A stretch of 52,855 nucleotides of DNA. Source: a virus. Taxonomy: Duplodnaviria > Caudoviricetes. Where the stretch lies: the IMG/VR virus record IMGVR_UViG_3300036820_000025, positions 1-52,855 of that record. One strand, 5' to 3'. Shown piece by piece: positions 2,462-43,243 of the stretch. The notes beneath the pieces are model-generated. The model was not told the DNA's origin, made no database searches, and saw only the letters and a program-made list of their open reading frames with translations. Both the position numbers and the translations under genes were made by a program. The stretch's first letter is position 1; each line of letters begins with the position of its first letter.

Positions 2462-4756
2462 TCACTCGGTCTTAACCCATCGCTTCGCCTGCATGCCGTC
2501 AACCCGCATGTTACGGCTCTCGTACCCCAACTGTTTGAGGGTCCGCGCGACCCGCTTCTCGGCCTTGGCGTCCATGCGCTCTTTATTCATCAGCAGAGCA
2601 TCGCGCAGGACCTCAAACGCTGTGAAGGGGCGCGAGCAGGGGGCCGGCACAACCTCGCCATTAGGGGCCGCTGTGGGCGTTATGAGCCACTGCCCGATGA
2701 CAGTCTCCCACACGTCGCGCTGCTCATGGCGGGAGTGACGGCCTTTCGCAAGGCGCTCGGCCTCCTCGAACTCAACGCCCGGCAGGTCGAGCATTTTGCG
2801 CATTCGGTAGATGTGCGCGCCCTCGGCCCATAGTTGATTGCGGTCGCGCTTTATCAGCTCGCGTAGGATTTGCCCGATTTCCATTGGCAACCATCGGCGC
2901 TGCCCGGTCTCATCGAGCGGTAGATGCTGCTCTTGATTGGTCGTTGCAAAGAGCATCCCGCGACGAGCGTACCGAGTCGGTAGCGTCTGCCACTTCTCGA
3001 CCCACTCCTCGTGTGTGCGCGTAATAACGCGCTTGATGTGCTCGGCTGAACCTGTGGATACGTTGACCATCTCCGCAATTTCCGACACGAGCTTGCCCTT
3101 GAGCATGCGCTTAAAATTGTCGTCATCTTTGGATAGGTCGAGCCCATCGGTAAAAAACTCAGGGTCGGGCACCAATGATTTAAGCGCCGAGGATTTGTAT
3201 AGCCCTTGCTGCCGCGAGAAAAACGTCGGCACCATGTCGAGCTGACAACCGGGCTCGAAGATACGCGAGGCGAGCCCCGACCAAATGTAGCGGCTCACAG
3301 CCTTGGCGTACTCGTCGTCGGCTGCGCCGCAGTAGTCGGCCATGAACCTATCGACGCGCGGCACGCCATCCCACGCGAGGGAATCGAGCCACACCATTGC
3401 GCTGTCGAACTTCAGGCGATCCGCCACGAGCGCGAGCGCATCGCGCATCATGTCTTTGCCGATTGCCGCATAGCGCAGCTCACGTTCGAGCTTTTCACGC
3501 AGCGCAGTCATATCGTTGTCGGTTAGGCGCATCCAATTGGCGCCGCCGTCCCGCGAAATCATGATGCACCCCCGGAACTCATCGAACCCGACCATGGTCT
3601 GCGTCTGCGAGCCTAACGTCTTAACGAGATTGGGCAGGCTGGCCTCGGCGAGCCCCTTACCGTTGATAGTAAGGTTTGCCATCGTCGTGGCTGTGACCGG
3701 AGGCGGCGGGGGCTCGGCTCCGACAATCTCAACAGTTAGAGTAGTGCCGGTTACAGCGTCCGGCGTCCCGCTTAGCTGCGCCGATGAGGTCTCCGCGGGG
3801 GGTGCAGAAGACAACGGCAGGGACTGCGCGGGCTCAGCATACCACTGCGTTTGAGACGCGCAAGCCCGCAGTATCGTGCCCCGGAAGTAATCGGGCCGGT
3901 GCCACTTGTCGCGCTGCAGTCCCTCGCATTTCCACATCAGCCGGGCCATGCGTTCGCAATCGTTGCCGGTCCAAAACGCGAGATGATTCGCGAGCGCGAT
4001 GTCGGCGCCCGAGCGGTCCCACGCATCGTGTCCGTTCTGCGTGGGGAAGGCTCGCGACAGAACATCAACGTTGGCCGTCCACAGAGCCGCGAATGAGGCG
4101 CCCTTGCCGAACGCGGCCTGTGCTGAGGTCGAGCGCATGGCCCGGTCTAGGAGCGCCGTATCGTCTGCAGGGCCACGCCACGCGGCGACAGGCTTGTCGG
4201 TCCATTCGACGGTGCCGTCGGTTTCCTCGCGCGGCGGGAAGTAGGCGGCAAGGAACCGCAATAGAGTGCCGGTACAGTCGGTCAGCACTGAGCCCGAAAT
4301 ATGCTGCCCAAGAGCGATGAACCGCGCCTCGGTATAGCACTCGGCCCGGTAATCGCTGTTGCGCGTGCGATGGTCGGGCAGCTCGCCGTGATAAGCACCG
4401 ATGATATGACCGCCCGTGCCGCTGACACTGCGCTCGACGTAGGCGTCGGGGAACCACTGCAGGAACGCGGCCACGTGGGGCTGCCAGCCGCCGGAGGGCT
4501 CGACGCATTGGTCAAAGTCGATGGCGAATCGTCCTGACTCGCGCGTAATGACGATGCCCACGCCGTAGCCGGCGCCCCATTGCTCGGCCCACATCGCGGC
4601 CTCGGCCGGCAGCATGTGCGTAGCAGGGTCCTGCGCGTTGATGGCTTCGCCCGAGAGCGGGTCAATCGGTATCTTGTCCGTCTTGCCGTTCTCTCGGGGA
4701 ACGAGCTTGTACAGGACGAACAAGCGCCGGTTTGACAGCTCGTCAAGTATGCTCAT
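2462..4756 (-). CDS. Primase-helicase: NrS-1-type prim-pol + helical bundle + VapE/VirE helicase
   Basis: IDFD and ERSVSGTGGH AEP motifs; DRSGADIALANHLAFWTG helical bundle; WDGVPRVD, QGLYKSS, TTN..LPLDETGQRRW VapE motifs. Confidence 0.88.
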   Translation of the reverse strand: MSILDELSNRRLFVLYKLVPRENGKTDKIPIDPLSGEAINAQDPATHMLPAEAAMWAEQWGAGYGVGIVITRESGRFAIDFDQCVEPSGGWQPHVAAFLQWFPDAYVERSVSGTGGHIIGAYHGELPDHRTRNSDYRAECYTEARFIALGQHISGSVLTDCTGTLLRFLAAYFPPREETDGTVEWTDKPVAAWRGPADDTALLDRAMRSTSAQAAFGKGASFAALWTANVDVLSRAFPTQNGHDAWDRSGADIALANHLAFWTGNDCERMARLMWKCEGLQRDKWHRPDYFRGTILRACASQTQWYAEPAQSLPLSSAPPAETSSAQLSGTPDAVTGTTLTVEIVGAEPPPPPVTATTMANLTINGKGLAEASLPNLVKTLGSQTQTMVGFDEFRGCIMISRDGGANWMRLTDNDMTALREKLERELRYAAIGKDMMRDALALVADRLKFDSAMVWLDSLAWDGVPRVDRFMADYCGAADDEYAKAVSRYIWSGLASRIFEPGCQLDMVPTFFSRQQGLYKSSALKSLVPDPEFFTDGLDLSKDDDNFKRMLKGKLVSEIAEMVNVSTGSAEHIKRVITRTHEEWVEKWQTLPTRYARRGMLFATTNQEQHLPLDETGQRRWLPMEIGQILRELIKRDRNQLWAEGAHIYRMRKMLDLPGVEFEEAERLAKGRHSRHEQRDVWETVIGQWLITPTAAPNGEVVPAPCSRPFTAFEVLRDALLMNKERMDAKAEKRVARTLKQLGYESRNMRVDGMQAKRWVKTE

Positions 4757-4813: not shown

Positions 4814-5108
4814 ACGCGGCCAGTATGCGCGCAGCTTTACGCTTCAGTGCCTCCGGGGCTTTTCTAGTTGGCAGGTAGTCGATTGCGAGCCCCTGCGCGA
4901 CGACTTCTAATACCTCGTGCTCGATGGCGTGGGCCATGATCGCGGCGCGCATATCCCGCATTGTGCCGAAATGGTACGACACAGTGCCCTCGACGCAGCC
5001 CGCGGCCTTGGCGATTTCAACGCGAAACACCCGCATAAACCCTTTCTGCTTCGACAGATTGACGGCCGCCTGCAATATGGCGTTTTTTAGGGCGACTGTG
5101 TTTTGCAT
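4812..5108 (-). CDS. TetR-like HTH DNA-binding protein (candidate repressor)
   Basis: ILQAAVNL...GF....RVEIAKAAGCVEGTVSYHFGT TetR-type HTH, with no full ligand-binding domain. Confidence 0.85.
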   Translation of the reverse strand: MQNTVALKNAILQAAVNLSKQKGFMRVFRVEIAKAAGCVEGTVSYHFGTMRDMRAAIMAHAIEHEVLEVVAQGLAIDYLPTRKAPEALKRKAARILAA

Positions 5109-5114
5109 GTGCGT

Positions 5115-5144
5115 ATCCTACTGTAGCGCTGACGGCTACGTCAA
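5115..5144 (-). promoter_or_regulatory. Sigma70-like promoter with operator overlapping -35
   Basis: TTGACG (5144-5139), 18 nt, TAGGAT (5120-5115); operator TGACG-gcta-CGTCA at 5130-5143; ATG 6 nt after the -10. Confidence 0.7.
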
Positions 5145-5608
5145 AGAGTGTCGGCAGTATTTGTGATGATAGCCCGGCCGCCCTGCGCGTTGACGAGGGC
5201 CGCCCATTTATTTTGTGCCATGTCTTCAAGGCTGTTAGATGGTTTCCAATTACGGCGCTTGCATTCCACGCTGAGGAATTGCGCGACGACACGCCCCACC
5301 ATCTCGGGCCGTATCACGAGCGGCTGCCATCCGATGAGATCCCCCGATTTAAACTCGTCGCCAAGCTGCTTAGAATCATTGGCGAGCCCGTACCGCACGA
5401 ACGTTCCCGAAGCCATTTTGCCGGCGCCGCGGTTGTTGCGGAATAGATAGCGGCCTGACTTTGCAGCCGCTAAGCGTACCTCAGACTGCACCCGCGCCTC
5501 AAGGTCGTTATCATCAGCCGGCGCGATGTACTGCGCAGATTCGCACAGCTCGCGCAGCGCCTCGGGCGGTATCTTCCATTTGAGCGCCCATTCGATTAAT
5601 GAAGCCAT
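5141..5608 (-). CDS. VRR-NUC-like nuclease
   Basis: LFRNNRGA...VRYGL...SGDLIG...FLSVECKR PD-(D/E)xK pattern. Confidence 0.8.
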   Translation of the reverse strand: MASLIEWALKWKIPPEALRELCESAQYIAPADDNDLEARVQSEVRLAAAKSGRYLFRNNRGAGKMASGTFVRYGLANDSKQLGDEFKSGDLIGWQPLVIRPEMVGRVVAQFLSVECKRRNWKPSNSLEDMAQNKWAALVNAQGGRAIITNTADTL

Positions 5609-6093: not shown

Positions 6094-6350
6094 TAGAACG
6101 GCACCGCGTCAGATTTTGAGTACCAATCGCGCATAGCCTGCGCCACGTCGAGCGCATCATAAAATTTCTGCCGCTGCTCGACGGTCATTGCAAGCCATCC
6201 GCCTTTACTCTCGCGGTACTGCGTGGCCCACATGATGACTGCGGCCGGTGCCGCCGGGTCGTTGGCGCGCAGCACGAACACGGGCTCGTCAAGCTCGGCG
6301 CGATTCCAGCACGAACGCGGCTCGATGATGTTGTCGGCTTTGGTGCTCAT
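6093..6350 (-). CDS. Conserved phage hypothetical protein
   Basis: DEPVFVLRANDPAAP motif; coupled to neighbouring genes. Confidence 0.7.
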   Translation of the reverse strand: MSTKADNIIEPRSCWNRAELDEPVFVLRANDPAAPAAVIMWATQYRESKGGWLAMTVEQRQKFYDALDVAQAMRDWYSKSDAVPF

Positions 6351-8029
6351 GCGGCAGCCTCGACTACGTTATGTTTGTTGAGCTGTTCGACGATACGCGC
6401 CTGCAGCGCCTCGGCCTCCGGGCGGCCGAGCGTGCGCGCGGTTTCAACATCAACCCCGAAGGTCAGATAAAACCGCTTTTGCGCCTCTCGGTCGCTCTCG
6501 CCGACGAGGGTACGCCAACCGCCCCACAGTCGCATGGCGTCGCGTAGGATGGCCTGCGCGCGCTGCCGCTCGGCGTGGGCACGCTGTATGTACGCTGGCC
6601 CGAACATCACGCCATCAATCCGGGCAATCTCGCCGCGGATGCGCGCCAATACTGCAGGGTCCAATTCCACGAGGTCGCCATCGACCGCCTCGGGCGTGCC
6701 TCGGCCGCCGGGCATTGGGACCTCGGCGCCGCAGTATGGGCAGCACGTGCGAAAGCGTTCATAAGGCTGAGCGCATGATATGCAAACCCGCAGCGGTATA
6801 GCGTCGCTGTTGCCTCGTGATTCACGGGCCGGGCGCCGGTCGAGGCTGTATTGTTGCGGGACATCGGGCAACCCGTGATAGATGCAGTTGCCCACGTGGT
6901 CGATAATGATTGCCTTGGGTTTCGGGCTCGCGGCGATGATTGCGAGCCGTTCCGCGTCGGTGAACTCGTGCAGGCGATGGTCAAAGCCCGGCGCCATCAC
7001 ACGCAGCGAGCGGCCGAACTGCTGCGCATAGAGCTGAAACGATGCCGTCTTGCGCACCATCGAGACAACCTCGATTGCTGGCACGTCTACGCCCTCGCCG
7101 AGACAGTCCACGCTCACGAGCTGCAGCAACTGCCGCGCGCGAAATTGCGCCATGAGCTGCGCGCGCTTACCTATCGGCGTTTTGGCCGTGATGATTTCCG
7201 CCGGCACGCCGGCCGCGTTGTACCCGATTGCCAACTCGCGCGCGGCTTCGATGTCTACCGCGAACGTTACGCCAAGTCGTCCGGCGGCCACTTTGAGATA
7301 ATTTTTGACAACATCGCCAACGATGCGGTTTGACTTGTGAGTGACTGCTCTAAGCTGTGGCATAGAATAGTCGCCAGTGTTCCCAATCGAAACGCTGCTA
7401 AAGTCGATGTCAGAGCTAGGGCACAAAAGACGGTAATCAGTGAGATAACCTCGGTTGATGAGTTCGCGGCACGAAGGGCCAATAATGAGGCGATCAACAA
7501 GCCCGTCAGCGCTGCGCCCGAGACCACTGCCATCAGCGCGTATCGCGTGAGCCGTCGGGAAAAGGCCGCGAGCGTTGGGGAACAACTGCATTGCAGTAGC
7601 CCATTTATTGCCTTGTACGACGTGGTGTCCCTCGTCGATGACGACGAGTCGGACGGCAGCGAGCCATCGGTCTGCGGGGTCGTGTCCTGTGAGGGTATCG
7701 ACTCCGGCGACGCGCACGTCGGCTCGGTAGTGGTAGCTAGAGTGTCCGTGTGTTTCATGCTCGGCCCTCACAATCTGCTGAATAACAGGTTTCGGTGCGA
7801 TGATTCCGTGCGGAATGCGTTCGCGGTTCAGCGCGAGCGCGGTTTGCGCGACAAGCTCTTGTCGGTGCGCTATGGCGACGGTTGGCTGTTGGCAATCTGA
7901 GATGATGCTGCAGAACGTAACCGTTTTGCCCGAGCCCGTGGGCATTACAGGCATGACGTTGTAGACATTCGGCTCAGACCATGCGGCGTACACCGCCGCT
8001 TTTACGTTCTGTTGGAAGTCTCGAAGCAA
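6347..8029 (-). CDS. SF2 DEXH helicase with C-terminal Zn ribbon
   Basis: PTGSGKT, DEGHH, EGVDVP, QQFGRSLR, CxxC...CPYC; TTG start. Confidence 0.92.
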   Translation of the reverse strand: MLRDFQQNVKAAVYAAWSEPNVYNVMPVMPTGSGKTVTFCSIISDCQQPTVAIAHRQELVAQTALALNRERIPHGIIAPKPVIQQIVRAEHETHGHSSYHYRADVRVAGVDTLTGHDPADRWLAAVRLVVIDEGHHVVQGNKWATAMQLFPNARGLFPTAHAIRADGSGLGRSADGLVDRLIIGPSCRELINRGYLTDYRLLCPSSDIDFSSVSIGNTGDYSMPQLRAVTHKSNRIVGDVVKNYLKVAAGRLGVTFAVDIEAARELAIGYNAAGVPAEIITAKTPIGKRAQLMAQFRARQLLQLVSVDCLGEGVDVPAIEVVSMVRKTASFQLYAQQFGRSLRVMAPGFDHRLHEFTDAERLAIIAASPKPKAIIIDHVGNCIYHGLPDVPQQYSLDRRPARESRGNSDAIPLRVCISCAQPYERFRTCCPYCGAEVPMPGGRGTPEAVDGDLVELDPAVLARIRGEIARIDGVMFGPAYIQRAHAERQRAQAILRDAMRLWGGWRTLVGESDREAQKRFYLTFGVDVETARTLGRPEAEALQARIVEQLNKHNVVEAAA

Positions 8030-9077: not shown

Positions 9078-10226
9078 ATGGCAGGCGCACACGCACGCAT
9101 CGCGCCCTCGGGGCTCGCCCTCACGGTTGCCTGCCACGCTTCAGTGCAGTTGCAGGAAGCCGCGGGCGAGCAGCCCGAGACCGACGAGGAGGCCGAAGGC
9201 ACAGCGGCCGACCTCGTGGCGCAGGCATACGCTGCCGGCGACCCGTGGCCGATTGGGCATAAGTTTGAGAGCAGCGGCCGGCAATGGGCGGTCGATGTCG
9301 ATATGGTGAACGGCGCGAAACTGTTCGTCGAGACGCTGCGCGGCGAGGGCGGCGACGTGCGCCTGCACGATGGCGTGCGCTGTTCAGCCATTCACGAAAC
9401 GGACTGTTGGGGTACGCCCGACGGTTGGCGCTTTTTCCCGCGTGGCACTGGCCCGCAGCAAACACCCGTGTTGCGTGCTGTCGAGTACAAGTACGGGTTC
9501 CGTTATGTCGAAGTGTTCGAGTGTTGGCAGCTCATCGCTTACGCCGTGGGCGTCATTGAGCGTCTGCAGCTCGACGACCAAAATTTGATACTCGAACTCG
9601 TCGTCGTGCAGCCGCGCTCGTACACCATCGAGGGCAAGGTGCGAACGTGGCGCGTCTCTGCGACCGATATTCGCGCGCTCGTCAACATCGCCGAGCATGC
9701 TGCCCACGAGGCGCTAAAGCCGAACCCAACAGCAACAACCGGCGCCCATTGCATCGACTGCAAGGCGCGCCATCTCTGCACGACTCTGCAGCGCTCGGCG
9801 GCCAATCTCGTGGACTACAGCGCGCAGGCCGACGCAAACGAGCTGAGCGCGGATGCGATGGGCTCGGAGCTGCACATTCTCGACCAAGCAATGCAGCGGC
9901 TCGAAGCCCGCCGCACGGGGCTCGCAATCCGCGCCGAGGCCGCGCTGCGTGCTGGCGTGCAGGTCCCGTTCTATGAGCTGAAACCCGGTCGGTCCAATCT
10001 CAAATGGTTGGAGACTGTGAAACCCGAAGACATTGCCGCGCTCGGCGATATACTAGGGGTCACCGTACGCAAGCCGCTCGAAGTTTTCACGCCGCGCCAG
10101 TGCATTGACGCCGGCATCGGCGAGGACCTTATCAACAACTACGCCAGCCGACCGGCCGCCGGGCTCAAGCTGGCCCCCGTTTCCATGACCGCAACCCGTA
10201 AAATGTTTGGAGCTAATCGCACATGA
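9078..10226 (+). CDS. DUF2800 Cas4-like PD-(D/E)xK exonuclease
   Basis: HARIAPS...C, WGTPD, EYKYG, QL..YA.G, QPR, HCxxCK....C. Confidence 0.85.
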   Translation: MAGAHARIAPSGLALTVACHASVQLQEAAGEQPETDEEAEGTAADLVAQAYAAGDPWPIGHKFESSGRQWAVDVDMVNGAKLFVETLRGEGGDVRLHDGVRCSAIHETDCWGTPDGWRFFPRGTGPQQTPVLRAVEYKYGFRYVEVFECWQLIAYAVGVIERLQLDDQNLILELVVVQPRSYTIEGKVRTWRVSATDIRALVNIAEHAAHEALKPNPTATTGAHCIDCKARHLCTTLQRSAANLVDYSAQADANELSADAMGSELHILDQAMQRLEARRTGLAIRAEAALRAGVQVPFYELKPGRSNLKWLETVKPEDIAALGDILGVTVRKPLEVFTPRQCIDAGIGEDLINNYASRPAAGLKLAPVSMTATRKMFGANRT

Positions 10227-11182
10227 GCACCGCACAGCCAAAGAATTTCGTTTCAGATACCGGCCGTATCCTATGGGGCGACCTGTACGCACCGCAGACC
10301 GAGGACATCGACGGCAATCCGTTGTTGATTAAAAACGGCCCCGATGCTGGCAAGCCCACGCAGCGCTATAACTTCGGCCTTGGGGTCGAGAAGCGCCCGG
10401 GGGAGACGCATTGGTCACAGTCGAAGCTCGGCGCCGAGATTTGGGCCGCGGGTTATGCCGCATTCCCACATCTACAGGACCCGACCACGCGGCAGCTACC
10501 GGAAACCTTCGCGTGGAAAGTCACCGACGGCGACTCGACCAAGCCCGGCAAACCGTTTCGTGGCAAGCCCGGCCGCAGACCCTGCGACAAAGAGGGCTAC
10601 CCGGGGCATTGGGTATTCAGTTTCAGCAGCTCCTACCCGCCCAAGGTCGTGAACGCCGACGGCTCGGCTTATATCCTCGACAAAGACGCGGTGCAGCCGG
10701 GCGACTACGTGCAGGTTGCCGGCAGCGTGTCGGGTAACTCGGGCTCGAATCCGGGGGTGTACCTGAATCACAATTTTGTGTCGCTGCAGTACAAGGGCCA
10801 GCGGATCATGAGCGGCCCCGACCCGTCTGCATTGGGCTTCGGCAGCGGCGCCAAGCCGGCCGGATACCTGCCCCCCGTGGGCGGTATGGCGGCCCCGCCT
10901 GCCGCCGTCCCTGCGGCTACTCCGGGCGCCCCCGTGCCTCCGCCGGCAACCCCGGCGGCCCCCGCCGCCCCGGCGCCTGCTCCGGTGCCCGTGGTGCCCT
11001 CTGCGACGTTCATTCCGCCAGCCCCGGCCGGTGCTGCCCCGCCGCCTCCGGCTGCTCCTGCAGCGCCTCCGGCGCCCGTGGGGCCGCAGATGACACCCAA
11101 GGCGGCCGGGATGAGTTACGACGCATTCCGCTCGAAGGGCTGGACCGACGAACAGCTCCGCGCAAACGGGTACATGGTCTGA
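10223..11182 (+). CDS. ssDNA-binding protein (DUF2815-like) with Pro-rich tail
   Basis: WKVTDGDS, EGYPGHW, PGDYV, GVYLN motifs; lies between DUF2800 and the polymerase. Confidence 0.75.
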   Translation: MSTAQPKNFVSDTGRILWGDLYAPQTEDIDGNPLLIKNGPDAGKPTQRYNFGLGVEKRPGETHWSQSKLGAEIWAAGYAAFPHLQDPTTRQLPETFAWKVTDGDSTKPGKPFRGKPGRRPCDKEGYPGHWVFSFSSSYPPKVVNADGSAYILDKDAVQPGDYVQVAGSVSGNSGSNPGVYLNHNFVSLQYKGQRIMSGPDPSALGFGSGAKPAGYLPPVGGMAAPPAAVPAATPGAPVPPPATPAAPAAPAPAPVPVVPSATFIPPAPAGAAPPPPAAPAAPPAPVGPQMTPKAAGMSYDAFRSKGWTDEQLRANGYMV

Positions 11183-11391: not shown

Positions 11392-13617
11392 TTGATCGAG
11401 CTACTAGCAGGGCAGCAGTTCATCGCCGGCCACGGTGTCGCAACCGTGGTAGCCGACCTCGATTTCGAGACCTATAGCGAAGCCGGTTACCGATGGGACC
11501 CGCTGCTATGCAAATGGAAGTCACTCGAAGGGCTCGCCGAACAGAACCGCGGCCTTCCGGCCGTGGGCGTCTACAACTACGTGACGCACCCAACGTTCGA
11601 GGTTTTATCGGTGGCCTACGACCTCAAAGACGGCCGCGGCAAGCGTTGGTGGCGCCCGGGCATGCCACAGCCCGAGGACCTGCTGCAGCACGTGCGCGAG
11701 GGCAAACCGCTTGAGGCTCATAATGAAGGGTTCGAGTGGCACGTGTGGATGCTCTATTGCGTCCGCGCGTTTGGTTGGCCGCCGCTGCTGCCGGAGGCCG
11801 AGCGCTGCTCGCAGGCTAAGGCTCGCGCGTGGTCGTTACCTGCGAAGCTCGCGAACGTCGGTATTGCACTGAGGCTCCCGCCGGAGCTGATGAAAGACAA
11901 AGACGGCACGCGACTGATTCAAAAATTGACGGTGCCGCGCAACCCTACTAAGGGCAACCCTGACCTGCGTTGGTATCCCCACACGGCACCCGAGGATTTC
12001 GCAGCGTTCTATCGCTACAACGTGCAGGACATCGAGAGCGAGGGCGCGGCGAGCATACGCATTCCCGACCTCGTGCCGCGCGAGCTGGAAATATGGCGCG
12101 TTGACCAAAATATCAACCGCCGCGGAATGCAGATAGACACCGTGGGCGTGCAGCACTGCATTAACATTGTTGAGCAAGCCACGGCGAAGTATAGCGGCCG
12201 ACTGCGCGAGATTACCGGCTACCGCGTGCATAAGCACACCGAGGTTGCGCAAACCCTCGAATGGTTGCAGACGCAGGGCGTGTACCTTGGCAATCTCGAC
12301 GAGGAGACGGTCGGCGAACAACTGAAAGTCGCACACTCCGATGGCGTCAGAGAGGTCCTGCGCATCCGGCAGGCACTGAGCTTCGGCAGCGTCAAAAAGC
12401 TCTATGCGATGCGCGCGCAAGTCTGCAGCGACGGCCGGCTGCGCGATCAGTACGCATTCCACGGTGCCCATACCGCGTTGTGGAACGGGCAGGGCGTGCA
12501 GGTCGCGAACCTATACACTCCGGGCGATGCGTTCAAATCGCCCGATAACGTCGAGATGGCGCTTGCGTGCATTGCTTCGGGCTCGCTCGATTACGTCGAG
12601 GGCGTGTACGGCGATGCGCTCGAATGCGTGGCGAACTGTTTGCGCTCAATGATTGTTGCGCCCAAAGGCAAGCTATTAATCTCGTCCGACTTCACAGCGA
12701 TACAGGCCGTCATTACCTCGGCGCTCGCAGGCGAGCAGTGGCGCCTCGATGTGTTCGCTACGCACGGCAAGATTTATGAAACTATGGCGTCGCTCATCAC
12801 GGGCAAGCCGCTGCAGTTTTATCTCGACTACAAGAAAGAAACCGGCAAGCACCACGCCGACCGGCAGCTCGGCAAGCTGGCCGTTCTGTCGGCTGACTTC
12901 GGCGCGTGGATCAACGGATGGAAGCGATTCGGCGCCGACAAAATCCTCGGCCCCGATGAGGAAATCAAGCGCGTTATTCTGCTCACGCGCAACGCGCAGC
13001 CGATGGTCGGCGAGCTGTGGGGCGGACAGGTTCGCGACAAATTCCGCTCGACGGAACGCCCCGAGCTGTTCGGGCTTGAGGGCGCAGCTATCAAGGCCGT
13101 CCTCGACCCGGGCAAATGCTACGGCTACCGCGGCATCCGGTATGTTGTCCATGATGACGTACTCTACTGCCAGCCGCCCGGCGACGGCGCGCCGCTGTGC
13201 TACCACGAACCCCGGCTGACGCCCACGCATCGCGAGTACAGCCGCCCGTGGGAACTCGATTTGTCATATATGGGCTGGAACTCGAATCAGACCAAAGGCG
13301 CGGGCGGATGGGTTCGCATGCCGCTCTATGGTGGCGTGCTCACGCAGAATGTTGTCGCTAAGTCAGCGCGCGAGTTCCAAGCCGACGCCCTCGTCGAGTT
13401 CGAGCGCTCGGGCTGGGCCGTCCCGGTCATGCACACCCACGACGAGGGCGTCTGCGAAATCGACGAGGAGCGCGGAACCAAGGCCGAGGGCATATGTAAA
13501 GCCGAGTTTGAATACATGATGACCGTACGCGCCCGGCGCCCGGAGTTCGCCGGCTGGCCGATCAAGGCGCCGGGGGCTTGGATACACGGACGTTTCGGTA
13601 AATGGGAAGGATTGTGA
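11392..13617 (+). CDS. Family A DNA polymerase with 3'-5' exonuclease domain (atypical motifs)
   Basis: ExoI DFET, ExoII AHN..FE, ExoIII YNVQD; motif A SDFTAIQ; motif B RQLGK; motif C HTHDE. Confidence 0.92.
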   Translation: MIELLAGQQFIAGHGVATVVADLDFETYSEAGYRWDPLLCKWKSLEGLAEQNRGLPAVGVYNYVTHPTFEVLSVAYDLKDGRGKRWWRPGMPQPEDLLQHVREGKPLEAHNEGFEWHVWMLYCVRAFGWPPLLPEAERCSQAKARAWSLPAKLANVGIALRLPPELMKDKDGTRLIQKLTVPRNPTKGNPDLRWYPHTAPEDFAAFYRYNVQDIESEGAASIRIPDLVPRELEIWRVDQNINRRGMQIDTVGVQHCINIVEQATAKYSGRLREITGYRVHKHTEVAQTLEWLQTQGVYLGNLDEETVGEQLKVAHSDGVREVLRIRQALSFGSVKKLYAMRAQVCSDGRLRDQYAFHGAHTALWNGQGVQVANLYTPGDAFKSPDNVEMALACIASGSLDYVEGVYGDALECVANCLRSMIVAPKGKLLISSDFTAIQAVITSALAGEQWRLDVFATHGKIYETMASLITGKPLQFYLDYKKETGKHHADRQLGKLAVLSADFGAWINGWKRFGADKILGPDEEIKRVILLTRNAQPMVGELWGGQVRDKFRSTERPELFGLEGAAIKAVLDPGKCYGYRGIRYVVHDDVLYCQPPGDGAPLCYHEPRLTPTHREYSRPWELDLSYMGWNSNQTKGAGGWVRMPLYGGVLTQNVVAKSAREFQADALVEFERSGWAVPVMHTHDEGVCEIDEERGTKAEGICKAEFEYMMTVRARRPEFAGWPIKAPGAWIHGRFGKWEGL

Positions 13618-13683: not shown

Positions 13684-15144
13684 ATGCCCACTTGGTCGCC
13701 CTATCAAGAAACCGCTTTCGACTTCATCGCCAACGGCGCCGGCAACGCGATTGTTAAAGCCGTCGCGGGCTCGGGCAAGACGACGACCGGCGTTGAGATG
13801 GTCAAGCGCATCCCGGCCGGTAAGTCGCACATTTTCTTGGCCTTCAACAAGTCGATTGCGACCGAGCTGTCATCGCGCGGCATCAACGGCCGCACGTTCC
13901 ACAGTCTTTGCTACTCGCCTGTGCTGCGCGCCAAGGACGTGAAAACGGTCACGACCGACAAGCTGCGCCGCGGAGTCGATGAGAACATCGGCGACGCCGA
14001 GGCGCGCCTGTATGGCTCGTTTATCGTCCGCCTCGTGGGGCTCGCTCGCAACGCTGGCGTGGGCGTGCTCTCGCCGGATGAGCCCGAGACGTGGGAAGCC
14101 CTCGCCGAGCACCACGACCTCGAACTCGACGACGAGGCTGCGAAGCCGGCGCGCGCCATTGAGTTGGCCCGCAAGCTCCTCGCGTGGTCGAACAGCGCCG
14201 ACGCGCTCGACTTCGACGATCTGCTGTACCTTGCCGTCAAGGACGGTATCAGCCTTCCCAAGTTCGACTATGTGTTCGTCGATGAGGCGCAGGACACCAA
14301 CGCGATACAGCGCGCCATCCTGCGCAAGCTGATGAAACCCGCGAGCCGCTTAATCGCGGTCGGCGACCCGGCGCAGGCCATATATGGTTTCCGCGGTGCC
14401 GACAGCGATTCAATGGGCCTCATCAAAGACGAGTTTGCCTGCACTGAACTGCCGCTGACAGTCACGTACCGCTGCCCCACGTCGGTTGTCGAATTCGCCC
14501 GCGAGTGGGTTGACCACATCGAGCCGGCACCGGGCGCAGCCGAGGGCACCGTCACAGAGCTGGGCGAGTCGTGGAAGCCGGCGCAGTTTCAGGCCGACGA
14601 CCTCATCGTGTGCCGCACAACCAAGCCCCTCATTGCGCTGTGCTACAGCCTGATTCGTGCCAAGGTGCCGGCCCGCATGATGGGCCGCGAGATTGGCGCC
14701 GGCCTTAAATCTCTCGTCACTCGCATGAATGCCAAGGGCATCGACGCGCTCGTCGAAAAGCTCAGCATCTACACGGCGCGCGAAGTCGAGAAGCACATCG
14801 CCAAGCGGCAGCAGGCGAAGGCCGAGGCCGTGCAAGACAAGACGGACGCGATTTTTTGTCTCATCGAAGGGCTGTACGAGACTGAGCGCACGGTGCCGGC
14901 GCTGCTCGCCGTCATCGACTCACTGTTCGATGAGGCTGCCGGGCAGTGCGTGCTCGCCACGATCCACAAGGCCAAGGGGCTCGAAGCAAACCGCGTATAT
15001 TGGCTCAACAGCTCGCAGTGCCCCGCCAAGTGGGCCACGCAACCGTGGCAGCAACAGCAGGAGCGCAACCTGTGCTACGTCGCCGTGACGCGCGCCAAGA
15101 GCGAGCTGCTATTGATTGAGGAACGAAAGGAGCGCAACCGATGA
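13684..15144 (+). CDS. UvrD/Rep-like SF1 helicase
   Basis: AVAGSGKTT, DEAQD, VGDPAQAIYGFRGAD, TIHKAKGLE, YVAVTRAK. Confidence 0.93.
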   Translation: MPTWSPYQETAFDFIANGAGNAIVKAVAGSGKTTTGVEMVKRIPAGKSHIFLAFNKSIATELSSRGINGRTFHSLCYSPVLRAKDVKTVTTDKLRRGVDENIGDAEARLYGSFIVRLVGLARNAGVGVLSPDEPETWEALAEHHDLELDDEAAKPARAIELARKLLAWSNSADALDFDDLLYLAVKDGISLPKFDYVFVDEAQDTNAIQRAILRKLMKPASRLIAVGDPAQAIYGFRGADSDSMGLIKDEFACTELPLTVTYRCPTSVVEFAREWVDHIEPAPGAAEGTVTELGESWKPAQFQADDLIVCRTTKPLIALCYSLIRAKVPARMMGREIGAGLKSLVTRMNAKGIDALVEKLSIYTAREVEKHIAKRQQAKAEAVQDKTDAIFCLIEGLYETERTVPALLAVIDSLFDEAAGQCVLATIHKAKGLEANRVYWLNSSQCPAKWATQPWQQQQERNLCYVAVTRAKSELLLIEERKERNR

Positions 15145-39554: not shown

Positions 39555-40094
39555 CTAGGCGGGGATGCGGCGGCGAGTCGGGCAGTCCTTGCCGCGCGGA
39601 ATTGGCCCCGAGCCGTTGAATGAGCAGGCGCAGCCGATGCCGTGGCCCCACTCGCGGCCATCGTTGTGTGCGCCATCGTCGCCCCTGCGCGGCACTCTAG
39701 CCCGGGGCGCCAACGGAGCCCCGCCTAGCCGTTCGTGCAATTCCTGCGACTGCGCCAGCGCGCGCCAGCAATTCGCGTTGGCCTCATTGAGAATCAGGTC
39801 AACGAGCGCGTGAATGCTGCCGTCAGGAAGCATGACGGTATCCGCGCCGCGTTCGAGCAGCGCGAGCATGTCGGCCATGTCCATTTGATGCCGCGCGATG
39901 CAATCCGCGTGGTCGCTCGATTTGCCGCGCGCGTGGTGCATCTCCTCGCCCGGGTTGTGCTTGTCGTTGCCAGCCTTCGAGTGCTTCGCCACGCCAGCGA
40001 GCGCGGCCGGGAAGTAGCAATAGCAGCCGGTATGCACCGGCACATTTTTGCGGGCGGCACTGTCCCACGGTAGGGTTATCAGTTTCTCAGACAT
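39555..40094 (-). CDS. dATP/dGTP diphosphohydrolase-domain protein (DUF5664-like)
   Basis: RK..P...G...YFP.ALA.VA..S..GNDKHNPG...H..R.KS.DH.D...RH...WRALA..Q. Confidence 0.8.
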   Translation of the reverse strand: MSEKLITLPWDSAARKNVPVHTGCYCYFPAALAGVAKHSKAGNDKHNPGEEMHHARGKSSDHADCIARHQMDMADMLALLERGADTVMLPDGSIHALVDLILNEANANCWRALAQSQELHERLGGAPLAPRARVPRRGDDGAHNDGREWGHGIGCACSFNGSGPIPRGKDCPTRRRIPA

Positions 40095-40350
40095 TGCGGT
40101 ATCTCCAAGCCAGCGCGATCCACACCGTATTGCCGGCGACAATGAACAGGCCGCCAGTAAACGAGAGCCACTGCGCGAGATGAGGGTAATAAAACAGGTT
40201 CCAAAATCCCCACGAGGTAAAGAATGCTGTTGATTTCAGCGACACGCCGCGCGTGCAACGGTCGCGTGATATGCGGCGAACGTTGCCCCAAATCGCAACG
40301 CCGCCCCATCCCTCGAACAGCCCATTTATCAGGTCGGGCGTGTGGATCAT
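40087..40350 (-). CDS. PQ-loop/SemiSWEET-like three-TM membrane protein
   Basis: 87 aa, three hydrophobic helices, RD+..+GVS loop, WN..YY. Confidence 0.65.
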   Translation of the reverse strand: MIHTPDLINGLFEGWGGVAIWGNVRRISRDRCTRGVSLKSTAFFTSWGFWNLFYYPHLAQWLSFTGGLFIVAGNTVWIALAWRYRNV

Positions 40351-40985
40351 ACCGAGAGCGGGCGCAGCAGCCGGTACTCGGTTAGAAATCGGTCGTATGC
40401 CTCGCGCGGCTCCCAGCACCGTTGTAGGTCATACCGGCTCGTGCCCTCGTAGAGTTTCAGCGCGTAATCACGCATGCCGGGCTCGGGCTGCAGCCAATCC
40501 GCGGTGACATTGTGGCCGAGCAACTGTTCGGCTTCGATGTACAGCGCGCACCAATCGGCAAATTTGACGCCCGCGCTTACCGTGGGCGGCAAACCGAACT
40601 GCTCACGCATCGCGTGTTCGATTCGCGTCTCGAACGGCCGATAGTCCTTGACCGTGACTTTCCACGGGGCGGCCATGTCGGACACGTAGCCCTCGTGGGC
40701 GTCGTGCATCAGCCCCTCATAGGGCGTGCCGCCGCGCATAGCGATAGCCGGCTCATACATCAGCGTTGCGACGAGCACGCCATGCTGAGCGACGCTGTAG
40801 CGCCGCTGCACGTGGCCGGTAAACCGGCACTGCATCGAAGTCGCCCACGCCATTTCGCGAATATCGCATATGGGGCGCTGGCAGTAGAATTTGCGAGTGG
40901 CGAACCCGCCCTTATCGTCGGGGCGGATGGCAACGACGTATTGGTCGTCGCCGTCAGCCTCGTATGTCTCGGCTGCATTTTTCAT
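40347..40985 (-). CDS. HD-domain deoxynucleotide phosphohydrolase (YfbR/YfdR/DatZ-like)
   Basis: CRF.GH....YSVAQH, LMHDAHEGYVSD...P.K, VK.AD...L..E. Confidence 0.88.
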   Translation of the reverse strand: MKNAAETYEADGDDQYVVAIRPDDKGGFATRKFYCQRPICDIREMAWATSMQCRFTGHVQRRYSVAQHGVLVATLMYEPAIAMRGGTPYEGLMHDAHEGYVSDMAAPWKVTVKDYRPFETRIEHAMREQFGLPPTVSAGVKFADWCALYIEAEQLLGHNVTADWLQPEPGMRDYALKLYEGTSRYDLQRCWEPREAYDRFLTEYRLLRPLSV

Positions 40986-41006
40986 GTGTGCGTGCGGTCC
41001 TAGTTG

Positions 41007-42497
41007 TTAGAGCGGTGCGCGGTATTCCCCGTCGATGATGAACAGGAGCTGCCGCTTGTCGTTGGCATCGAGCGCGCAATGCGCCTGATGCCACGACGAC
41101 GGGCCGGCGTTGTACTCAAGCCGAAGCCCGGTAGACGTGCCGACCTGCGTGCAACCCTCGTCCTCACCCGGGCTGTGCGGGTGCCCGGTAATCGTCTTGA
41201 CGCCGATGCGGCGTAGATTGCGGATTGAGCCCCGCGCGCCGTTCGGGCCGCGGTTGCCGTGCATGCCAAGCTCGTGGGTGCCAAGCATAAAAGACTCGTC
41301 CTCGTCGAGTATTCGAGTCTGCGGCATGTTGTAGCGGCGCATCCAATATGTGAATGCGTTCGGGTACTCGGTGCCCTTGTTGGTCAGCTTGGTATTGCGG
41401 ACCATATGCAGCGCCGTCTCAAGATACCATTCGGCGTTGGTAGGGTCCTCGCGCCAATCGGCATCGACGATGTACCGCGTCAAAAAGTCATCGTGGTTAG
41501 AGGTAACAATCACGTTCTGCGTGTCTTTGATCGTGTGCGCTTCGATGAACCGGCGCAGCGACTCCAAGCTCGCGCGCACAGAATCGAGGCCACCAAAGCG
41601 CTTTGCCACGCGATTGAACGGATTGTGCTTATGATGCGGGTTGACCGGGTAACCATCCGTCGAATCGTGCAGTAGGATGTTCCGCGGGCGCAGAACGCCA
41701 ACCATGCCGCCTTGTCCGTATGTGGCGCGAATGACGCCCTTGTCGGTGAATGGGTCATGCCAATCCCCCGTGATGAGCCCGAGCGCGCGGGGCGCCTGTT
41801 GCACGCTGTCGGCGAAATACTGTTCGCCGCGCGCGGAATCAATCGCCGACTTCGAGCGGCCATCGAAATGAATGCGGCGCATGTGGAACCGCTTTTTATT
41901 GACGACTTCCACGAGGACGCACGACAACGAGTGATGAAACTGGCCCACGCGCCCGGCGCGCGTATCGCTGTAGTTCTCGACCGTGCAAGAGCCCGAGGTC
42001 ATCAAAATTTTCGCCATGCGATTCTGTGGCGTGGCGATGGTGCGCGTCTGAATCTTCGGGTGTGCAACTATCGCGCTGGCCGCGCCTGAGACGGCCTCAA
42101 AGCCCGTCAGCGGGTCCGCGGCCGTGGGCTGTATCTTGATGTCTCCGAGCAGCGTAAGGTTGTCGTTCAACGGCTGGCGCACATTGGCGAGAAACGGCCG
42201 CGTTTCCTTGGCCCAAAAATCCTTGCCTTCCTGCGAGCCGACCCAACGCGACGTGGGGTTTTTATAGCGCATCGGCAACACCACGAGGTCGGCCCCGCGG
42301 TGCTCGGCGATGCGCTGTAGTACGGCCCACCACTCCGCGTGTACCGGCGTCGAGTTCTGCGCGGCGACGACGAGCAGCGTTTTAACACGCTTGCCGAGGC
42401 GCCACGGGAAAATCGCTACGGGCGATTTGTCCTCGTAGAGCGGGTCATTCTCCCGCGTGAACGTGTCAAGGTTGCGGGGTGTCGTTGAATTGGTCAT
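41007..42497 (-). CDS. Calcineurin-like metallophosphoesterase (long, two-domain)
   Basis: GDWH, LHD..DG, SNHDD, MHG..G.NG.RG, TGHPHSP in the C-terminal half. Confidence 0.78.
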   Translation of the reverse strand: MTNSTTPRNLDTFTRENDPLYEDKSPVAIFPWRLGKRVKTLLVVAAQNSTPVHAEWWAVLQRIAEHRGADLVVLPMRYKNPTSRWVGSQEGKDFWAKETRPFLANVRQPLNDNLTLLGDIKIQPTAADPLTGFEAVSGAASAIVAHPKIQTRTIATPQNRMAKILMTSGSCTVENYSDTRAGRVGQFHHSLSCVLVEVVNKKRFHMRRIHFDGRSKSAIDSARGEQYFADSVQQAPRALGLITGDWHDPFTDKGVIRATYGQGGMVGVLRPRNILLHDSTDGYPVNPHHKHNPFNRVAKRFGGLDSVRASLESLRRFIEAHTIKDTQNVIVTSNHDDFLTRYIVDADWREDPTNAEWYLETALHMVRNTKLTNKGTEYPNAFTYWMRRYNMPQTRILDEDESFMLGTHELGMHGNRGPNGARGSIRNLRRIGVKTITGHPHSPGEDEGCTQVGTSTGLRLEYNAGPSSWHQAHCALDANDKRQLLFIIDGEYRAPL

Positions 42498-42810
42498 CGG
42501 CCTTCTGCTTTGCTCGTGCCTTCGCGGCAATCTTTGCGCTCGCGAACCAAATATGCTTCTTGCCGTCTGCGTTCTCACGCTTCACCACGACGATATGCGC
42601 GGCGAATTGGTCTCGAACTCGGGCAAGGTCCTTTGGCGCGCAGCGGATGCGTTTCTGCAGCTCGCTCTCGGCCTCGTACCATTCTGCGCCGAGCTTGAGC
42701 ATTTCAGCAAGCGCGGCCCGTATCTGCTGCGGGAGCTTCACGGCTTTGACGTGAGTCACGCCGAAAGTATCAAGCGAACGTGCGGGTGCGGTGTTTTTCT
42801 TAGCGGACAT
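42466..42810 (-). CDS. Small basic protein (possible DNA-binding)
   Basis: Lys/Arg-rich; tiled between the GNAT and phosphoesterase genes. Confidence 0.65.
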   Translation of the reverse strand: MSAKKNTAPARSLDTFGVTHVKAVKLPQQIRAALAEMLKLGAEWYEAESELQKRIRCAPKDLARVRDQFAAHIVVVKRENADGKKHIWFASAKIAAKARAKQKADDQFNDTPQP

Positions 42811-42817
42811 TGGTTGC

Positions 42818-43243
42818 TCACAGTGACAAACGGAAGTAGTGATAACGCTTGCCAGCGTATGGGGTCTCGGGTCGATAGAACGAGAACCCCTCGCGCAGCA
42901 GATTGACCATCGACGGATAGTTTTGCAGCGTTGTATAGGTGCGAATTTCTTCGGCCCCCTGCCACCATCCCCAAAACACGCGATGAGCTATCAGCCGGCG
43001 CTGTAAATGTTGCCCTTGATACTTCGCGACGACAGCAGCGCGCGATAGGAAAACATAGGGCTTGTCGCCCTCGGGGGCGCGAAATATCGCCGACGCAAAC
43101 CCCACGGTGCGGTTGCCGGCGTCGGGGTCGCGCGCGACCCAAAACGTATGATCGTCGCCGACCCATTTGTCAGCCTCGAATGCGAGGTCATGCAGCACGC
43201 GCGCCGAGTCGATGTCGTCGAGCCTGCGCACCGTAATTGTCAT
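42818..43243 (-). CDS. GNAT N-acetyltransferase
   Basis: VGFA, FLSRAAV..KYQGQHLQRRLI (AcCoA-binding motif A), N.PS..NL...GF. Confidence 0.85.
   Translation of the reverse strand: MTITVRRLDDIDSARVLHDLAFEADKWVGDDHTFWVARDPDAGNRTVGFASAIFRAPEGDKPYVFLSRAAVVAKYQGQHLQRRLIAHRVFWGWWQGAEEIRTYTTLQNYPSMVNLLREGFSFYRPETPYAGKRYHYFRLSL

Follow-up and report, generated by a model that had tools for sequence, protein, structure and literature searches.

The virus record IMGVR_UViG_3300036820_000025 (Caudoviricetes), analysed here over its complete length of 52,855 bp and henceforth referred to as the window (CheckV completeness 100%, G+C ~62%), encodes a family A DNA polymerase whose active site departs from that of DNA polymerase I (Pol I) at several normally conserved positions. 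The polymerase gene lies at 11392..13617 on the plus strand, starts with TTG, and specifies a 741 amino acid (aa) enzyme of the SPO2-like/Leu762 type. Arg668, Glu710, Asn845 and Gln849 (Klenow numbering) are textbook determinants of Pol I catalysis, sugar selection and fidelity, and all four are replaced in the large natural clade to which this enzyme belongs. The protein is probably a working replicative polymerase with intact proofreading, in which the polar cluster on the minor-groove side has been swapped as one compensated unit.

Residue equivalences were obtained by aligning a hidden Markov model (HMM) of 220 family sequences to full-length E. coli PolA, which gives Klenow numbering directly. 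The motifs of the polymerase, in the numbering of the window and of the protein, are the following.

11455..11478, plus strand: exonuclease motif Exo I, DLDFETYS (D24, E26); D24 and E26 conserved in all three active-site states described below, except in gapped rows
11719..11736, plus strand: Exo II, HNEGFE (F114, E115); F114 invariant in two alignments
12010..12030, plus strand: Exo III, YRYNVQD (Y209, D213); Y209 and D213 invariant
12463..12489, plus strand: TGR equivalent, GAHTALWNG (aa 358-366); L363 (codon 12478-12480) at R668, and H360 in place of the family's usual Arg
12688..12705, plus strand: motif A, DFTAIQ (aa 433-438); D433 at the catalytic D705, and Q438 (codon 12703-12705) at the steric-gate residue E710
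12862..12903, plus strand: motif B/O-helix, RQLGKLAVLSADFG (RQLGK followed by AVLSADFG; aa 491-504); equivalences by spacing
13345..13374, plus strand: motif 6, QNVVAKSARE (aa 652-661); A656 (codon 13357-13359) at Q849, and Q652 (codon 13345-13347) at N845
13432..13446, plus strand: motif C, HTHDE (aa 681-685); H683-D684-E685 at H881-D882-E883

In the alignment to E. coli PolA, the T-G-R of the family falls on T666-G667-R668, its motif A Asp and Glu fall on D705 and E710, and its motif 6 Gln falls on Q849; at the level of profile alignment, L363, Q438 and A656 are shown to be the counterparts of R668, E710 and Q849. R429 of T7 likewise aligns with the family TGR Arg (R668). The match of T7 gp5 to the family HMM was weak (E 0.006) and confined to the TGR and Exo III stretches, and T7 was dropped for the other positions. 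The equivalence of F503 to Y766 is weaker and is taken from the R-x3-K-x3-L-x3-F spacing of motif B, which puts R491, K495, L499 and F503 at R754, K758, F762 and Y766, the HMM alignment having stopped short of this motif. The equivalence of Q652 to N845 is also weaker and relies on an i/i+4 register with A656 within one predicted helix (H647-673); Asn is present at position 652 in 8 canonical relatives. The catalytic carboxylates of Pol I (D705, D882 and E883) are kept as the family-conserved D433, D684 and E685, and the O-helix Arg and Lys (R754 and K758) are kept, by spacing, as R491 and K495, which are invariant or nearly so. Three hallmarks of family A are absent from the protein: the TGR Arg (L363), the steric-gate Glu (Q438) and the motif 6 Gln (A656). 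An earlier sequence-only reading of the window had quoted most of these motifs and aligned them by eye; every quoted motif was found in the polymerase open reading frame (ORF), no more than a few bases from the position stated, and profile alignment to Klenow chains and to E. coli PolA confirms that its register was correct at R668, E710 and Q849.

The ORF matches phrog_17 'DNA polymerase' with an E value of 1e-57, and its Pfam DNA_pol_A score of 16.2 bits is below the gathering cut-off of 34.3. Homology is clear despite the low Pfam score because the phrog_17 match, the profile alignment and the fold agree. The AlphaFold2 model of the polymerase (predicted local distance difference test score 95.8, predicted template modelling score 0.93) contains the palm, fingers and thumb of a Pol I-type enzyme together with a 3'-5' exonuclease domain. 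Foldseek searches with the model retrieved Pol I-type structures only (E 1e-16 to 1e-12, top-match probability 1.00), with phage G20c Pol I and Klenow as the best matches and M. smegmatis Pol1, Bst, Taq and phiVC8 DpoZ (7pbk) also present. Sequence searches of the PDB with the single protein or with a profile of variant sequences gave no match; a profile of 106 family members was needed, and this matched Klenow, Taq and Bst chains with E values of 1e-16 to 1e-9.

Within family A, the protein carries the residue after which the Leu762 subfamily is named, L499 at motif B position B3 (Klenow F762), which is invariant in 337 relatives, as well as the DxE exonuclease motif of that subfamily (D24, E26). 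Leu at B3 defines the SPO2-like cluster #3 in the motif sections of PMC10201439, and we infer that the enzyme fits this cluster rather than the neighbouring KPP25-like cluster #12. The named phages with whose polymerases kinship was shown, at 28-30% identity, are those of Staphylococcus, Streptococcus, Clostridium, Paenibacillus and Brevibacillus.

Relatives were gathered by word-index searches with the query and with a second variant polymerase (P0127), by a HMMER search of representatives, and from named phage records. When 220 sequences were first aligned with MAFFT, four positions (363, 438, 652 and 656) split into two classes with zero mixtures. A larger set of 337 full-length sequences (640-870 aa, with intein-bearing sequences and fragments left out) was then aligned to the family HMM and consists of 196 canonical, 121 variant and 20 intermediate members, proportions that do not reflect natural frequencies, since similarity to two variant queries governed the sampling. 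The residues found in each state, with their counts, are listed below.

Canonical (n=196): 363 R196; 438 E196; 503 Y102/F94; 652 E188/N8; 656 Q195/S1
Variant (n=121): 363 L105/H14/M2; 438 Q121; 503 F121; 652 Q121; 656 S61/A60
Intermediate (n=20): 363 R20; 438 E20; 503 Y20; 652 Q20; 656 G20

No mixing of states at 363 and 438 was observed within this set. When all query-mapped columns were ranked without bias by the residue overlap between variant and canonical sequences, positions 363, 438, 652 and 656 were the top four, with overlaps of 0.00-0.01, which is far from a chance pattern; the changes are thus coordinated, as the sequence-only reading had proposed, and its observation holds more strongly than it was put. 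Secondary changes coupled to the state are R360 to His, K/R649 to Val, D661 to Glu and A657 to Lys or His, and the main subclade additionally carries N365 and D502. Two further features singled out in that reading hold in part: the Phe in place of Y766 is present by motif B spacing (F503) but is not specific to the clade, being found in 94 of the 196 canonical relatives, and the 'new Asp' (D502) is present and restricted to the main subclade, 72 of the 121 variant sequences having it.

The residues required for catalysis and proofreading were retained throughout. D433, D684, E685, R491, K495, D24, E26 and D213 are conserved in the canonical, variant and intermediate states, which bears out the claim that the catalytic Asps, the O-helix Arg and Lys and the exonuclease motifs are intact. 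In 50 variant sequences with a mean column identity of 47%, Q438, Q652, F503, D433, R491, K495, L499, D684, E685, Y209 and D213 are all invariant. Strong purifying selection on the new residues and near-perfect coupling of the changed positions are both shown. Since the new residues are invariant while the catalytic and exonuclease residues are conserved, the variant site is a constrained alternative and not a product of decay, in agreement with the earlier claim, and decay or inactivity of the polymerase was rejected on these grounds.

When all 381 collected proteins were classified irrespective of length, a single mixed sequence, P0240, was found. This 1054 aa protein, excluded from the 337-sequence set by its length, has R363, Q438, F503, E652 and M656, and represents a further lineage in which E710Q is paired with loss of Q849. 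Its motif C reads Y-D-E rather than H-D-E. One N-terminally truncated fragment was classified as variant-like. The HMMER search of 50%-identity representatives gave 9,440 matches at E<=0.001, and the best 150 of these 9,440 comprise 140 canonical sequences, 8 variant ones with the fragment in addition, and 1 mixed one.

Many relatives are ~1000-1350 aa long (P0017, P0047, P0133-P0246 and others) and contain insertions of 250-350 aa in two places, just past the TGR region (query ~378-383) and within motif B (500/501). The motif B insertion of P0240 has Cys at its start and His-Asn at its end, followed by Cys, an intein-like junction. A Pfam Hint-type domain was found in one of three long homologues (P0174), below threshold, and one phage record among the matches is annotated as an intein-containing polymerase precursor. 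The insertions are best described as intein-like, mainly from the C...HN|C junctions of P0240.

Phylogenetic trees were built without the signature columns. In the FastTree phylogeny of 337 sequences, 119 variant polymerases form a main clade with support 1.0, and a second variant pair (P0127 and P0269) is sister to the 20 intermediates; the clade enclosing them, again with support 1.0, includes 5 canonical sequences as well. This placement implies two changes of state. A 62-sequence subsample was analysed with IQ-TREE (LG+C20 posterior mean site frequency model, quick search); it drew 21 sequences from the 119 of the main clade and 7 from the 20 intermediates, took all 23 sister-group members other than intermediates, and added 11 outgroups. 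Shimodaira-Hasegawa-like approximate likelihood-ratio support was 100 for the main clade, 97 for the P0127 and P0269 pair, and 100 for the enclosing clade of 14 rows, canonical and intermediate sequences included. The best tree uniting all variants costs 28.9 log-likelihood units and is not rejected by the approximately unbiased (AU) test (p 0.192). Two origins of the variant state, and with them convergence, are suggested by these trees, but the AU test leaves a single origin unrejected.

The intermediate clade (20 polymerases, including P0271-P0281 and P0318; loci L051 and L052) keeps R668 and E710, has Gln at the N845 position and Gly-Gly at 656-657, so that Q849 is absent, and has His for Thr in the TGR motif (A-H-H-G-R). 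From this clade, the likely order of events is that motif 6 changed first (E652Q with Q656G/S/A) and that R363L then arose together with E438Q.

The variant polymerase belongs to an uncultured lineage. All 16 cultured-phage polymerases compared are canonical at 363 and 438, and the 15 of them alignable at 652 and 656 are canonical there as well (Glu or Asn, plus Gln), which shows that phages with ordinary DNA do not commonly carry these substitutions. The set comprises polymerases of Shewanella phage SppYZU01; Pseudomonas phages PaMx74, SS2019XI and vsMR; Staphylococcus phage phi7401PVL; Clostridium phage phiCT453A; Proteus phage P2-71; Brevibacillus phage Emery; Burkholderia phage Bcep43; Acinetobacter phage Scuro; Stenotrophomonas phage B2; Vibrio phages CKB-S1 and 1.009.O; Enterobacter phage Mulvp2; Streptococcus phage Javan183; and Escherichia phage 26. 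The highest identity in the phage collection searched was 42.0% to the query and 43.6% to P0127. In IMG/VR, a single-protein query gave one locus and an alignment query gave 80, of which 24 are variant, mostly on contigs of ~51-54 kb and several with terminal repeats. The species-genome collection yielded 15 loci, all on metagenome-assembled contigs and none a prophage in an isolate genome; 9 were classified, and 1 of these (L131, in a metagenome-assembled bin) is variant. No contrast in base composition was seen between the variant loci (median GC 0.584, n=24) and the others (0.566, n=56). Of the 120 sequences nearest to the query (all variant), 18 have a PF00476 match on record; of the 120 nearest to P0127 (mostly canonical), 112 do. 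Pfam-based marker surveys of viral PolA will under-count the variant clade, as most of its members fall below the DNA_pol_A threshold.

The altered positions are confined to the pocket of the nascent and terminal base pairs, as had been claimed, and passages of PMC10520511 and PMC3715850 describe what the corresponding side chains do in well-studied enzymes. According to PMC10520511, Q849, R668, E710 and D882 have counterparts in Bst Pol I that are near one another and in electrostatic interaction; the terminal base pair is hydrogen-bonded by R668 and Q849, and fidelity is reduced in mutants of R668, R682, E710 and N845. E710 and Y766 are called "universally conserved within A-family polymerases" in PMC3715850, where the Klenow E710Q enzyme is a mutator with a low incorporation rate and a Kd1 for correct dNTP of 120 versus 5.1 uM (~20-fold weaker), and Y766F resembles the wild type. 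On the strength of this Bst and Klenow literature, the residues that switch together would form one physical cluster. R668, E710, N845 and Q849 would then have been exchanged for Leu (or His/Met), Gln, Gln and Ala/Ser as a co-adapted unit. The exchange would turn a charged cluster into an uncharged one, as the positive R360, R363 and K649 are lost along with the negative E438 and E652, and Lys or His at 657 is often gained alongside this loss of charge. Such a charge-balanced swap could compensate changes that are harmful singly and tolerated jointly. Gln would keep the bulk and shape of the Glu gate, with the 2'-hydroxyl still excluded and dNTPs still used, and since Glu to Gln retains the side-chain shape it is by itself no argument for a new sugar. 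The hydrogen bonds through which Arg and Gln directly read the minor groove would be lost or weakened, and base-pair checking would fall to pocket shape and proofreading. A change in fidelity or substrate range may be a consequence of the swap.

Several points weigh against such a compensated exchange in a working enzyme. Klenow fragment that has lost R668 or Q849 alone is reportedly strongly impaired, and that these single-change defects are compensated in the clade is an assumption. Mutation of the Q849/R668/E710/D882 cluster in Klenow disables binding or catalysis according to passages of PMC10520511. Contacts among L363, Q438, Q652 and A656 are carried over by analogy from the Bst literature, and we infer the activity and fidelity of clade members from their residues. 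P0240 breaks the strict coupling, the relatives were sampled with the bias described above, and the AU test allows the state to have arisen once. The window also carries nucleotide-pool enzymes, described below, and an interplay with nucleotide pools may occur in this phage.

A wider claim can be put forward only tentatively, namely that the clade is a lineage without minor-groove reading by Arg668, Gln849 and Asn845 and with an amide steric gate, possibly arisen more than once via the intermediate, which checks base pairs differently. Such polymerases could tolerate minor-groove-altered or unnatural pairs, or could replicate an unknown kind of DNA whose synthesis genes are unrecognisable.

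It is less to be expected, though conceivable, that the swap was selected for a changed phenotype, either as a built-in mutator or for extension of mismatched, damaged or non-standard termini or templates. The changed residues include all four Klenow side chains reported to act in fidelity or mismatch recognition at this site (R668, E710, N845 and Q849), and Klenow E710Q is a mutator in the passages of PMC3715850 cited above. The best tree has the combination in two places and P0240 adds a third lineage, a repetition that hints at selection over drift; a single origin is nevertheless allowed by the AU test. A selected high error rate runs contrary to the full conservation of the proofreading exonuclease, and the GC content of the variant loci is unremarkable.

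The sequence-only reading had favoured adaptation of the pocket to a non-standard dNTP, minor-groove- or sugar-modified. Extended to the cassette at 39.5-43.2 kb, the proposal is that its genes would help to make or select this dNTP and that the phage DNA would be modified. The altered residues do border the minor groove as well as the sugar of the incoming nucleotide, and enzymes of the dNTP diphosphohydrolase and dNMP phosphatase types accompany base replacement in some phages. The cassette sits between the portal and MuF head-morphogenesis genes and consists of four ORFs.

39555-40142, minus strand: dATP/dGTP-diphosphohydrolase-N-like (dGTP_diPhyd_N) ORF (E 0.0012, below cut-off)
40347-40985, minus strand: HD-type phosphohydrolase, phrog_318 'dNMP phosphatase' (E 2e-40)
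41007-42578, minus strand: A1-like 'DNA transfer protein', phrog_1745, 523 aa, no Pfam domain
42818-43243, minus strand: GNAT

By their names, phrog_318 and phrog_1745 bring to mind dmp and A1, which are pre-early genes of phage T5, and by analogy they would suggest takeover of host DNA or of the nucleotide pool by the island at 39555-43243.

Co-occurrence of the cassette with the variant polymerase, which the sequence-only reading had put forward as a check, was examined in two ways. A search of 39 whole records for the HD protein found it in one of the 23 non-variant records and in one of the 16 variant-polymerase records other than the window. The 67 window ORFs compared by tblastn with 12 whole records (the sister phage G017, 8 complete variant genomes and three canonical phages of 41-44 kb) gave the following distribution for the cassette.

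dGTP_diPhyd_N-like ORF: 2 of 8 variant genomes; absent from G017
HD phosphohydrolase: 1 of 8 variant genomes; absent from G017
A1-like protein (phrog_1745): 1 of 8 variant genomes; present in G017
GNAT: 0 of 8 variant genomes; absent from G017

G017, at 51.6 kb, matches the window in structural and replicative type but has a canonical polymerase; the proteins that it shares with the window are 26-62% identical. Each window ORF that matches all eight variant genomes also matches G017; no window gene tracks the polymerase state, because all core ORFs of the eight variant genomes recur there. The window, G017 and 16 variant records (18 in all) were searched for PF00303 (thymidylate-synthase-like), PF01702 (TGT/DpdA) and PF00709 (PurZ/adenylosuccinate synthetase); none of these families was found in any of them, and the control genomes responded. 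We know of no natural minor-groove or sugar modification besides 2-aminoadenine, and the PurZ that would go with this sole candidate is absent. The retention of the gate shape by Gln also speaks against a new sugar. The link of the variant polymerase to the 39.5-43.2 kb genes was rejected, as these genes are sporadic in variant genomes and the A1-like gene also occurs in the canonical G017. Judged by gene content, the set is an accessory island and the proposal of a non-standard dNTP is without support. Although an unknown or host-supplied modification pathway would escape such family tests, the proposal is best regarded as very improbable.

It is scarcely credible that the polymerase is decaying or inactive and that replication falls to another enzyme, such as the NrS-1-like primase-polymerase encoded nearby at 2462-4756: single Klenow mutations of the replaced residues disable binding or catalysis (PMC10520511) and the Pfam score is under its cut-off, yet there is no variation in the exonuclease residues, the catalytic Asp/Glu or the Arg/Lys of the O-helix, Q438, Q652 and F503 are invariant across 121 sequences diverged to ~47-60% identity, the ORF is intact in all variant sequences, and canonical-polymerase relatives carry the same primase-helicase.

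The closest known system is the SPO2-like group of polymerases (cluster #3 of Czernecki et al. 2023; CDD cd08642), equivalent to the 'Leu762' PolA of Schmidt, Nasko and Keown, with which the query shares Leu at B3 and an intact 3'-5' exonuclease. The query is 28-42% identical to such polymerases from Staphylococcus, Streptococcus, Clostridium, Paenibacillus, Vibrio and Shewanella phages. The groups described in Nasko et al. 2018 (PMC6302109) have SNF2-like, UvrD-like and RecB/Cas4-like neighbours, as in the window. Arg in TGR, Glu in motif A and Gln in motif 6 are kept by these known enzymes, whereas the query and its clade have lost all three. According to the sections of PMC10201439 on conserved motifs, motifs TGR, A, B, 6 and C are conserved in all 19 PolA clusters, the sole exception flagged being Ala for Thr in the TGR motif of one cluster, and the variant subclade is not described in those sections. 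Positions 668, 710 and 849 are unmentioned in the main texts of Nasko 2018 and Keown 2022 (PMC9069017). Open-access full-text searches on a steric-gate Gln in phage PolA and on R668/Q849 turned up no account of such a clade, and neither R668L nor Q849S was found in open-access literature text. On that basis, the clade is a previously undescribed active-site variant within the known SPO2-like/Leu762 polymerases.

The Klenow mutants E710Q, E710A, R668A, N845A, Q849A and Y766F concern the same positions, and E710Q and Y766F are the same substitutions as in the clade. These mutants define the roles of the side chains as steric gate, minor-groove contacts and fidelity determinants (passages of PMC10520511 and PMC3715850). 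They differ from the natural enzymes in carrying one change each and in being mostly impaired or mutators, whereas the clade combines four to seven joint changes under purifying selection in more than 100 sequence clusters.

DpoZ of phages with ZTGC-DNA (phiVC8-like and Wayne-like) is also a phage family A polymerase and is tied to a base altered in the minor groove. It has Phe at B4 (Y766) according to PMC10201439, as does the clade, although Phe is equally present in 94 of the 196 canonical relatives. DpoZ belongs to another PolA cluster and co-occurs with PurZ, and kinship with it was rejected on the absence of PurZ (PF00709) from the 18 records.

The variant clade, the intermediate clade and a close canonical sister enzyme together constitute a natural experiment on active-site epistasis. 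Close canonical relatives are P0124, at ~50% identity, and the polymerase of G017. The clade also offers candidate scaffolds for polymerase engineering, for example for unnatural base pairs without minor-groove acceptors.

In the window, the polymerase gene stands within a replication module composed of the following genes, and the genes outside it form a siphovirus-type structural and packaging module.

2462..4756, minus strand: primase-helicase (NrS-1-like HBD and VapE/D5-like), common to canonical-polymerase relatives
6347..8029, minus strand: SNF2/DEAD-type helicase
9078..10226, plus strand: DUF2800 exonuclease, upstream of the polymerase
10223..11182, plus strand: gp2.5/Enc34-like single-stranded DNA-binding protein, directly upstream of the polymerase
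11392..13617, plus strand: family A DNA polymerase, variant active-site state
13684..15144, plus strand: UvrD-like helicase, directly downstream of the polymerase; accessory

The UvrD-like helicase was found in 4 of the 8 complete variant genomes. The window record is classed as linear with end repeats absent, despite its completeness rating, and direct terminal repeats are present on several relatives of 51-55 kb (G002, G003, G005, G008, G011, G012, G015 and G016). A plus-strand ORF at 5148-5450 (within 5108-5596) has weak coding statistics (G+C at first codon positions, GC1, of 0.45) and gave tblastn matches in all 12 phage records compared. It sits in a gap of the minus-strand gene row and may merely shadow a conserved gene on that strand which was left uncalled.

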